From: a virus
Taxonomy: Duplodnaviria > Heunggongvirae > Uroviricota > Caudoviricetes
Strand: one strand, 5' to 3'
DNA length: 5,030 bases
IMG/VR virus record: IMGVR_UViG_2534681831_000045
Shown here piece by piece: positions 1,322-1,855 of the stretch. A program made the position numbers and the translations under genes. The notes beneath the pieces are model-generated. The model saw nothing but the letters and a program-made list of their open reading frames with translations, had not been told where the DNA came from and made no database searches. Position 1 is the first letter of the stretch; each line of letters starts with the position of its first letter.

Positions 1322-1855
1322 ATGCTTACCCTGGACGAGATAGGTCAATCAGTACGTAACAATATCCAGTTGATTATTGATCATGTCGGCTTACCTCTTG
1401 CTGTTGGTCCGCTCAGTGATGATGATTACAAGATTCTGTGTGGTGGCTATGGTGAGCTTGAATGGGACTATGCGTTAAGTACCTATGGCAACTCCAGAGA
1501 AAAGTATGAGTTCTGCATAAAACTTGTTCAGCAAGGTCGGGTTCAGGGAATACCATCAGGAGCAGCAATTTGTGTTTATGGGGTTGAAGAAAACATCTTT
1601 CGTATCCATATGATCGAAAGGTTTTCTAGAGAAGATGAATCTCACCCATTGAAAGGGCGCATGGTTTTACTCACTCTTATGAGTGCTTTTATATTTTGTA
1701 AAGCTGTTGAATGTAAAGTTGTCCACATTGTAGAGCCAGTACCAGAACTGGTGCAGTATTACGAGTCTTTTGGTTTCCGCATGGAACAGTGCGGTTATGT
1801 GATGTCGGCAGTCATTGATGAGCTGCAGGATATCTTTCTTAAATTTGCTCAGTAG
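1322..1855 (+). CDS. Hypothetical protein, 177 aa; possible GNAT-like (acyl-CoA N-acyltransferase) fold, very tentative
   Basis: Seen: ORF with stop TAG at 1853-1855. An SD-like GAGAGG (1311-1316) sits 5 nt before the ATG at 1322; the ORF-track start at 1319 is too close to it. Inference: the C-terminal half has the order of a GNAT core (strand IFRIHMIERF, loop, helix VLLTLMSAFIFCKAVEC, strand KVVHIVE, helix PELVQYYESFGFR), but the canonical Q/R-x-x-G-x-G/A CoA-binding motif is missing. Confidence 0.65.
   Translation: MLTLDEIGQSVRNNIQLIIDHVGLPLAVGPLSDDDYKILCGGYGELEWDYALSTYGNSREKYEFCIKLVQQGRVQGIPSGAAICVYGVEENIFRIHMIERFSREDESHPLKGRMVLLTLMSAFIFCKAVECKVVHIVEPVPELVQYYESFGFRMEQCGYVMSAVIDELQDIFLKFAQ

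Follow-up and report, generated by a model that had tools for sequence, protein, structure and literature searches.

What does a small gene carried just inside the edge of a lambdoid prophage do, and does it act alone? The question is raised by positions 1322-1855 (+ strand) of a 5,030-nucleotide (nt) stretch of caudoviricete DNA (IMG/VR virus record IMGVR_UViG_2534681831_000045; the whole stretch is referred to here as the window), which encode a protein of 177 amino acids (aa). An earlier note, drawn up from the letters alone, proposed a possible divergent GNAT-like core for this protein. The present analysis assigns it a GNAT fold, and this assignment is robust for a predicted structure. 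The family is best described as an undescribed, divergent outlier of the GNAT superfamily, because it is GNAT by fold but fails the motif A test and all curated sequence models. The gene is accompanied by a downstream open reading frame (ORF) of 57 aa, and the pair is a concrete candidate for a new two-component system on account of its invariant small partner, its remodelled cofactor loop, its hotspot position and its wide presence in prophages of enterohaemorrhagic Escherichia coli (EHEC) and Salmonella.

A GNAT fold by predicted structure

An AlphaFold2 model of the 177-aa protein, built with 32 homologues (mean pLDDT 84.3, pTM 0.83), was found to contain the GNAT elements in complete order. 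The predicted domain spans approximately residues 26-164 and runs through beta1 (residues 26-29), alpha1 (33-40), alpha2 (48-55), beta2 (61-70), beta3 (73-87), beta4 (92-100), alpha3 (114-129), beta5 (133-137), alpha4 (141-148) and beta6 (160-164), with an extra helix at the N-terminus (residues 4-22) and another at the C-terminus (residues 165-176). When the model was compared with the PDB by Foldseek, 299 matches were obtained at E ≤ 1e-3, of which the best 50 were all GNATs (TM-scores 0.5-0.6). The best match was the AtaT toxin (E 1.3e-6), and KacT and TacT3 were also among the top structural matches. Matches of the predicted model among viral structures (BFVD) were GNATs too. The GNAT-like core is thus borne out by the model and by Foldseek; its proposed confinement to the C-terminal half is not, given the predicted extent of the domain and the additional terminal helices.

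Sequence comparison gave a different picture. No Pfam or NCBIfam model matched the 177-aa protein at E ≤ 1, and a single one of 58 family members matched Acetyltransf_1 of Pfam (E 0.0058). Among the checks that had been suggested, the Pfam profiles therefore returned nothing, whereas the AlphaFold model and Foldseek returned a GNAT. Searches with both the 177-aa and the 57-aa protein against Pfam, NCBIfam, PADLOC and the PDB (phmmer) assigned neither to a family, the only matches being PHROGs of unknown function, and PADLOC-DB v2 contained no defence family for either. With a profile of the wider family, the best PDB match was nourseothricin acetyltransferase (5c82, E 0.0077), followed by four weaker GNAT matches through the YxxxGF region. 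A profile of the narrower family matched engineered gp41 and armadillo linkers, and these matches were rejected as spurious. In hhalign comparisons of the family with YjhQ and with a RimI profile, the YxxxGF motif alone was aligned, at low probability, and no subfamily could be assigned. The N-terminal acetyltransferases NatD/Naa40, Naa10/Ard1, Naa20 and RimI share 9-14% identity with the 177-aa protein, and their sequence profiles align with it over the YxxxGF motif only; the 177-aa protein differs from them further in lacking Q/R-x-x-G-x-G/A and a predicted beta7 and in having extra terminal helices. In a literature search, neither the protein accession nor GNAT defence systems of prophages led to any publication on this family. 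In terms of the hallmarks of the superfamily, the fold and motif B (the Tyr of YxxxGF and an acidic residue at the base position) are present, and motif A and matches to curated models are absent.

A remodelled cofactor loop and conserved catalytic positions

Does the protein still work as an enzyme? The pattern [QR]xxGx[GA] has no match anywhere in the 177-aa protein. The lack of a canonical acetyl-coenzyme A (CoA)-binding loop, pointed out in the earlier note, holds across the family: motif A is missing from the beta4-alpha3 loop in 57 of the 58 members and is correctly placed in one. The motif is replaced here by 108-HPLKGRM-114, and in the family by a longer and strongly conserved (H)PLxG(R/K)M. 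When the family is aligned to 5c82 by HMMER, e-e-p-[LkG]-r-m-v-e stands opposite RGHGVG; three inserted residues break up the motif, and other residues take the place of both signature glycines.

The most conserved positions among the 58 members are W48 in alpha2, in the region of the usual acceptor site (58/58), Y147 in alpha4 (56/58) and E99 at the end of beta4 (48/58); G151 and F152 of the YxxxGF motif are conserved in 49. The YYESFGFR segment described earlier is present at residues 146-153. Y147 was found to pair with Y115 of RimI within YxxxGF in a profile-profile alignment of low probability, and it also lies inside the motif alignment with 5c82. GNAT mechanisms commonly employ a Tyr on alpha4 as general acid and a Glu on beta4 or beta5 as general base. 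Judged from their positions, E99 and Y147 would thus be the general base and general acid, respectively.

We consider it moderately probable, from these conservation patterns, that the 177-aa protein is an active acyltransferase with a remodelled cofactor loop. Of the proposal that it is a divergent or inactive GNAT, the divergence is upheld; inactivity is not favoured because E99, Y147 and W48 are the most conserved residues. The alternative that the protein is a GNAT-fold pseudoenzyme, which has lost acyl-CoA binding and whose role is confined to scaffolding or binding the small protein, appears quite improbable. It would explain the near-universal loss of the pyrophosphate-binding motif, the split alignment with 5c82 without either signature glycine, and Pfam acetyltransferase models that stay below threshold, with one member of 58 reaching E 0.006. 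However, a strongly conserved (H)PLxG(R/K)M loop together with E99, Y147 and W48 is the pattern expected of a working active site, and CoA contacts in GNATs are made mostly by backbone amides.

The gene in an mEp460-like prophage

The reading frame is opened by ATGATG. The longest ORF starts at 1319, and ATG 1322 is both the RefSeq start (WP_000956557.1) and the start kept in all related loci. A Shine-Dalgarno-like GAGAGG lies 7 nt 5' of this ATG (1309-1314, +), and its GAGG block is invariant among the aligned loci. The protein is 100% identical to gp23 of phage mEp460 (PHROG 4350), and its homologues are 54-89% identical across Enterobacterales. Close homologues form 48 Enterobacterales-wide clusters, and a library of 1.8 billion proteins contains 80 clusters when these are drawn at 50% identity. 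Comparison with the Salmonella gene revealed 64 synonymous and 20 non-synonymous codon differences, and in the closer comparisons, of which this is one, synonymous changes were at least as many as non-synonymous ones. RefSeq, homologues and codon comparisons agree in indicating a real gene under purifying selection at 1322-1855, as first called. The protein is acidic, with an isoelectric point (pI) of 4.81 and a net charge of -10; the pI of the close family is 4.3-4.9.

The window is 98% identical to mEp460 from position 1068 onward. The gene order of mEp460 is integrase (-), dusA-like 5' piece, gp23 (+), gp24 (+) and excisionase (-). Because of this match and the same gene order in the window, the 177-aa gene is identified as gp23 of a lambdoid prophage that is mEp460-like and integrates at dusA; it lies immediately inside the attachment (att) junction on the dusA side. 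The earlier description as prophage-adjacent cargo is accordingly right as to cargo and wrong as to adjacency, the gene being within the prophage. Among 5426 complete genomes of E. coli, 358 carry the gene, every copy being at least 99% identical. The prophages that carry it include those of EHEC O157:H7, O111 and O145, and also those of Salmonella, Enterobacter, Citrobacter and Photorhabdus. In O111:H8 strain 08-4455 (NZ_CP077540.1), a copy of IS1203 lies within the gene, of which only nucleotides 140-534 are contiguous, and the small ORF is intact; disruption of the GNAT gene is therefore tolerated in this strain.

A small partner that follows the gene

The 57-aa ORF is located at 2052-2225 (+), 196 nt downstream of the GNAT gene, and corresponds to gp24 of mEp460 (PHROG 2741). 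The earlier note gave this spacing correctly, but set a pairing with this ORF aside, a judgement that does not survive comparison of loci. By tblastn, a homologue of the 57-aa protein was detected downstream and on the same strand in 22 of 22 loci (from E. coli, Citrobacter, Pseudescherichia, Franconibacter, Enterobacter, Photorhabdus, Xenorhabdus and phage Eeyore), at gaps of 93-272 nt. Small-ORF homologues were found downstream in Edwardsiella, Salmonella, E. hormaechei and Hafnia as well. Three remote relatives extend the comparison; two have about 31-32% GNAT identity to the window protein, and the third was recognized by the family profile alone (E 3.6e-5). In two remote relatives, a downstream 60-aa ORF (1 nt and 210 nt away) retains the FDT/AY..LG motif, the basic C-terminal tail, or both. 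In the third, a downstream 70-aa ORF overlaps the GNAT gene (-1 nt) and is small and basic, its homology not being clear. Among the loci examined, no GNAT gene was found without a downstream small ORF. In complete genomes of E. coli, 562 carry the small ORF versus 358 the GNAT gene, and every GNAT record has the small ORF.

The contexts of the pair differ widely. In E. coli and Salmonella it lies between att and xis; in Citrobacter, E. hormaechei and Eeyore it directly follows the Q antiterminator and precedes methylase and holin genes; in Edwardsiella and Hafnia it precedes holin. It was also observed within a myovirus tail-gene cluster (Photorhabdus), beside tail-fibre genes (locus L044), and at a prophage edge adjoining a host EamA gene (Pseudescherichia). 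Because the pair is kept at every locus examined despite these differing contexts, comparison of the loci indicates that the 57-aa ORF belongs to the GNAT unit, with linkage kept in at least five prophage contexts. That the two are functionally independent morons, merely co-inherited, is very improbable. A long spacer in most Enterobacterales loci and the persistence of the small ORF with different upstream cargo would be in line with independence, but linkage survives in at least five unrelated contexts and persists as GNAT identity falls to about 31%, at which level the genes adjoin or overlap, and a GNAT gene on its own was not encountered.

The small protein shows strong purifying selection, with 15 synonymous and 2 non-synonymous codon differences from its Citrobacter counterpart, to which it is 96% conserved as against 69% for the GNAT. 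It is basic (pI 10.5, charge +7.6) and has a grand average of hydropathy (GRAVY) of -0.55. It contains no Pfam or NCBIfam domain. Modelled alone (pLDDT 61.6), it is largely disordered in the prediction, apart from one helix (residues 22-32). Conserved features of its family are an N-terminal MKxQK, FDT, LMKAAP and QGK, together with the invariant lysines K5, K31 and K50. The tail is basic and ends in two small residues (RRRKAA, HRQAA, KKAVA, REAA). C-terminal ClpXP degrons include RRKKAI of MuA, ...ALAA of ssrA and ...VAA of RseA (PMC8138137). The RRRKAA tail resembles such degrons, and the partner may accordingly be labile. A possible natural fusion, P0087 (246 aa), has in its C-terminal extension the string KQMPNAP, which resembles KAAPNAF of the partner; the similarity was not significant by hhalign (E 0.21) and the candidate was rejected.

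An autonomous cassette with a structured spacer

How is the pair expressed? Alignment across loci revealed a TATAAT box (TACAAT in other genera) at 1284-1289 (+), about 33 nt 5' of the start codon. As a candidate -10 element it is accompanied by a poor -35, and a scan for consensus promoters did not list it among the full ones. At the other end, a strong intrinsic terminator detected by a terminator scan (2244-2269, +) closes the cassette and is conserved in all contexts. Its hairpin is GC-rich, and a T tail was reported on the + strand only; it may act in both directions, through an A-run 5' of the hairpin that could give a minus-strand T tail. A PrtN-type excisionase gene (2273-2581, -) is convergent with the small ORF and stands back-to-back with it on this terminator. 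Weak, sub-threshold Rfam matches at 2244-2269 (rnk leader, RNAI, sroH) were rejected as terminator artefacts.

Because the -10-like box and the terminator travel with the gene pair across unrelated contexts, the GNAT gene and the 57-aa ORF bear the signature of an autonomous two-gene phage moron cassette with a putative promoter of its own. Three features typical of morons were found, namely signals conserved with the cassette (the promoter activity being putative), a fixed slot with alternative cargo, and at least five contexts. Read-through from the host dusA promoter could add to the cassette's putative promoter, since the dusA 5' remnant and the promoter presumed to lie upstream of it point into the cassette and the terminator scan predicted none between the remnant and the GNAT gene. 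In contexts after Q, the cassette would presumably be transcribed late in lytic growth as well.

The spacer between the two genes contains three inverted repeats that are conserved in seven genera: hairpin A (CCAATCGA / TCGATTGG; 1961-1981, +), hairpin B (AAGTTAGC / GCTAGCTT; 1985-2007, +) and hairpin C (GAGAC / GTCTC; 2022-2040, +). Hairpin C lies directly 5' of GGGAG (2041-2045, +), the ribosome-binding site of the small ORF. In Franconibacter, the stem of hairpin B is retained with different bases (GGATAG/CTATCC). The minimum free energy fold of 1850-2060 gave z = -3.2, and covariation was weak, with double changes in 3 of 38 pairs. The hairpins could serve in attenuation, processing or translational control, or could be DNA operators. 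No Rfam family was found in the intergenic region, where only sub-threshold terminator-like matches occurred. A 43-aa ORF in the spacer (1955-2086) was rejected as a gene, as it is conserved within E. coli only. ArcA-regulated sRNA-17 of E. coli K1, a small RNA of 193 nt, comes from mEp460-like prophages (PMC7719688). Despite the similar length of the spacer (196 nt), its identification with this RNA was rejected, since sRNA-17 maps to the early region of mEp460 (L005:12190-12208, about position 30929) and is absent from the window.

An exchangeable cargo slot

An exchangeable segment at 1236-2038 (+), whose blastn breakpoints fall at 1235 and 2039, comprises the GNAT gene together with the promoter-like box before it and the structured spacer after it. 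Exactly this segment is replaced, in phages SKA5 and Lys8385Vzw and in about 200 E. coli genomes, by a Panacea-domain (PanA) antitoxin gene and a gene for a hydrophobic protein of 128-139 aa. The former matches SocA_Panacea of Pfam (PF13274, 1.8e-18). Loci recorded for this slot are L029:2293-3500, L030, L031 and L048. The flanks are unchanged with either cargo, with dusA and att on one side and the small ORF, terminator and excisionase on the other. Homology with the PanA variants resumes at 2039, within the 3' arm of hairpin C. The Panacea toxin-antitoxin pair thus shares slot, orientation and flanks (att, cargo, 57-aa ORF, xis) with the GNAT cassette in sister phages, but its proteins are unrelated to those studied here. 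In enterotoxigenic E. coli H10407, an extra CoiA-like gene was observed past the small ORF.

Neighbours of the cassette in other genera were also recorded. In Hafnia prophages, a RelA/SpoT-type gene stands directly upstream of the cassette, after Q, and matches the PADLOC defence candidate PDC-S33 (E 1e-112 to 1e-119; L041:2150-3109 and L042:2051-3109). In E. hormaechei (L037 and L039, 1-509), the prophage region that holds the cassette also carries, some kb upstream of it, genes for a cloacin/colicin-type toxin and its immunity protein, additional cargo of the competition or defence kind.

The neighbourhood points to toxin-antitoxin or defence-type cargo, because of the Panacea pair in the same slot and the PDC-S33 neighbour in Hafnia. 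A different view of the cargo is that the GNAT is a lysogenic-conversion or counter-defence enzyme that does no harm to the cell and acylates a protein of the host or of a rival phage, or a small molecule, in the manner of AcrVA5 on Cas12a; the small protein would be its targeting adaptor, substrate or co-regulated helper. We regard this view as rather doubtful, though it accords with much of the record: the catalytic-position residues are conserved, the genes are linked, GNATs are common in phage genomes as the BFVD matches illustrate, the family occurs widely, with more than 99% conservation in EHEC O157/O111/O145 prophages, and moron-type placement after Q and before lysis genes leads one to expect high late expression. 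It fits less well with the company that the cassette keeps, since cargo that shares a hotspot tends to be functionally analogous and both the alternative cargo and the Hafnia neighbour are of the kinds just described. Nor was any likeness to a specific small-molecule or anti-CRISPR GNAT found beyond the fold.

Proposed function of the pair

What, then, would the two proteins do together? We tentatively prefer, though with less than even confidence, a toxin-antitoxin-like exclusion or defence module, in which the GNAT acylates a basic macromolecule and the small, degron-tailed partner restrains it. The pair would be expressed from the prophage as an exclusion or defence module. The acidic GNAT would be the enzymatic effector, acylating a basic macromolecular target that is more likely a protein than tRNA, and the small, disordered partner would bind the GNAT and hold it in check. 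Should the labile partner be lost, as might happen when an infecting phage turns off gene expression in the host, the enzyme would be set free. The effector role is given to the GNAT because the small ORF occurs without the GNAT gene in E. coli records and never the reverse, and because the partner is antitoxin-like in its physical properties. The charges of the two proteins are complementary (-10 and +7.6). The acidity of the enzyme would speak against nucleic-acid binding and against the tRNA-acetylating mechanism of TacT and AtaT.

Several observations weigh against this proposal. The enzyme-first order and a spacer of up to 272 nt are unlike known GNAT toxin-antitoxin operons, and no DNA-binding ribbon-helix-helix (RHH) domain is recognizable in the sequence of the 57-aa partner. 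The acidity of the GNAT sets it apart from GNAT toxins that bind tRNA. Among Enterobacteriaceae, conservation is higher in the small protein than in the GNAT, and the charge pattern is the reverse of that in most type II pairs; the opposite roles fit equally well. The CoA pyrophosphate loop reads as non-canonical, and the use of acetyl-CoA is putative. Neither protein matches PADLOC. The small ORF persists beside the unrelated PanA pair and may have a function of its own. Finally, the structural neighbours of the model span many GNAT subfamilies, with no specific affinity to toxins in the predicted structure.

The conservation and the charges bear most directly on the main rival reading, a reversal of roles, in which the basic 57-aa protein would act as effector or toxin and be neutralized by the acidic GNAT in a type VII-like manner, by sequestration or by acetylation of its N-terminus or conserved lysines. 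The order of the genes would then be the usual one, with the neutralizer first, and an acidic GNAT with a basic small protein would show the charge pattern that is common for an antitoxin and its toxin. The stronger constraint on the small protein relative to Citrobacter (96% versus 69%; 15 synonymous and 2 non-synonymous differences) and its conserved MKxQK N-terminus and invariant K5, K31 and K50 would also be accounted for. There is a precedent for the logic in YjhQ, a Pfam-confirmed GNAT annotated as the TopAI antitoxin, but neither TopAI nor YjhQ has homology to the present proteins. Moreover, about 200 E. coli genomes carry the small ORF without the GNAT gene, which would be lethal for an un-neutralized toxin unless PanA covers for it, and the strain 08-4455 arrangement, with IS1203 in the GNAT gene and an intact small ORF, hints at viability without the GNAT. 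A hydrophilic and disordered protein with a degron-like tail is also more suggestive of an antitoxin or regulator than of a toxin. The reversed roles are considered unlikely, and the GNAT is retained as the effector in the tentative proposal above.

Comparison with known systems

The type II GNAT/RHH systems (TacAT, AtaRT, KacAT and ItaRT) resemble the present pair in that a mobile element encodes a small partner alongside a GNAT-fold protein of about 160-180 aa. Their toxins AtaT, KacT and TacT3 are the structural matches mentioned above, and Y147 lies on alpha4 where these toxins have their catalytic Tyr (6gtr is the Y144F mutant of AtaT). The differences are substantial: these systems have no sequence homology to the 177-aa protein, whereas in the present pair the enzyme gene comes first and is followed by a spacer, the 57-aa partner has no RHH/DUF1778 domain (no Pfam match), and the GNAT is acidic rather than basic and lacks the canonical acetyl-CoA loop. 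No RHH/DUF1778 antitoxin was found directly upstream of the GNAT gene, where the dusA remnant and the att junction lie. Because of this absence, the opposite gene order and the acidic enzyme, the pair should not be filed under the GNAT/RHH systems.

The GNAT YjhQ is the neutralizing partner of TopAI in yjhX-yjhQ of E. coli K-12 (PMC4666372). There, too, a GNAT of about 180 aa accompanies a small protein, and RefSeq likewise annotates the GNAT as the neutralizer. However, YjhQ is a canonical GNAT (Acetyltransf_1, 4.8e-12) and TopAI belongs to PF09857; both are unrelated to the 177-aa and 57-aa proteins (hhalign probability 1%), the small gene comes first, and the pair is not phage-borne.

AcrVA5 is reportedly a small single-domain GNAT on a mobile element that modifies a protein target, Cas12a, and the 177-aa protein resembles it in being small, single-domain and carried by a mobile element. 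No specific similarity between the two was found, and AcrVA5 has no obligatory small partner. Among the systems of PADLOC-DB v2, the only match was that of the Hafnia neighbour to PDC-S33. GNAT morons as such are not surprising, and the fold is the one that the earlier note had anticipated.

The locus and its neighbouring genes

The window matches the chromosome of E. coli O111:H8 strain 8B at 100% identity. In the RefSeq annotation of this strain, the neighbourhood runs lexA-dinF-yjbJ-zur, a frameshifted DUF2713 gene, the dusA 5' remnant, the GNAT ORF and the 57-aa ORF. Past the 57-aa ORF, RefSeq and Pfam place on the opposite strand the genes for the PrtN-type excisionase, an Rv2179c-like 3'-5' exonuclease and DUF551 proteins, followed by an IS1203 remnant and late lambdoid genes.

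The dusA remnant (tRNA-dihydrouridine synthase A) lies at the att junction, at 1071-1175 and up to 1193 (+, the orientation of the cassette); it is annotated as such in RefSeq, and the translation of its ORF begins MKMHGNSEMQKINQ. Positions 1068-1235 are common to mEp460 and the PanA-carrying variants. In mEp460, a near-identical dusA-like 5' piece lies beside the integrase, as expected of dusA-integrating elements that rebuild the 5' end of the gene.

The host DUF2713 (yjbM-like) gene is annotated as frameshifted (L001:11728-12708). The window begins within this gene (1-708, +), and a 235-aa ORF at 1-708 (+) covers the full DUF2713 model of Pfam (E 1e-166). At 3163-3897 (-), an intact 244-aa ORF with a C-terminal DUF551 domain is found where RefSeq has two partial DUF551 pseudogenes; it looks like a chimeric or recombinant gene. 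A truncated transposase gene of IS1203 (IS3 family; 4719-5030, -; L001:16719-17447 in the genome) abuts the early-left operon, and in the strain 8B genome DUF968 and Q genes lie directly past it. Since IS1203 is directly adjoined by DUF968 and Q, the prophage has lost its immunity and replication region and is defective.

Implications for prophage biology

It is possible, though doubtful, that the pair represents an undescribed two-component, phage-borne class that combines an acidic, remodelled-loop GNAT with a ClpXP-labile basic protein and acts as an enzyme-based toxin-antitoxin or abortive-infection switch. Such a class could take two forms, with the GNAT either an enzymatic antitoxin that acetylates a small effector or a protein-acylating toxin restrained by its partner. 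In either form, the class would, if real, stand apart from the GNAT/RHH systems that acetylate tRNA and would be common in prophages of EHEC and Salmonella. A toxin-antitoxin or defence role of the pair would introduce a GNAT architecture that differs from those systems and consists of an acidic enzyme with no canonical CoA loop and a tiny degron-tailed partner, and would make the slot between att and xis of dusA-integrating prophages a cargo hotspot worth mining. The family itself is uncharacterized and invisible to Pfam, NCBIfam and PADLOC, yet it is present in the prophages of major pathogens.

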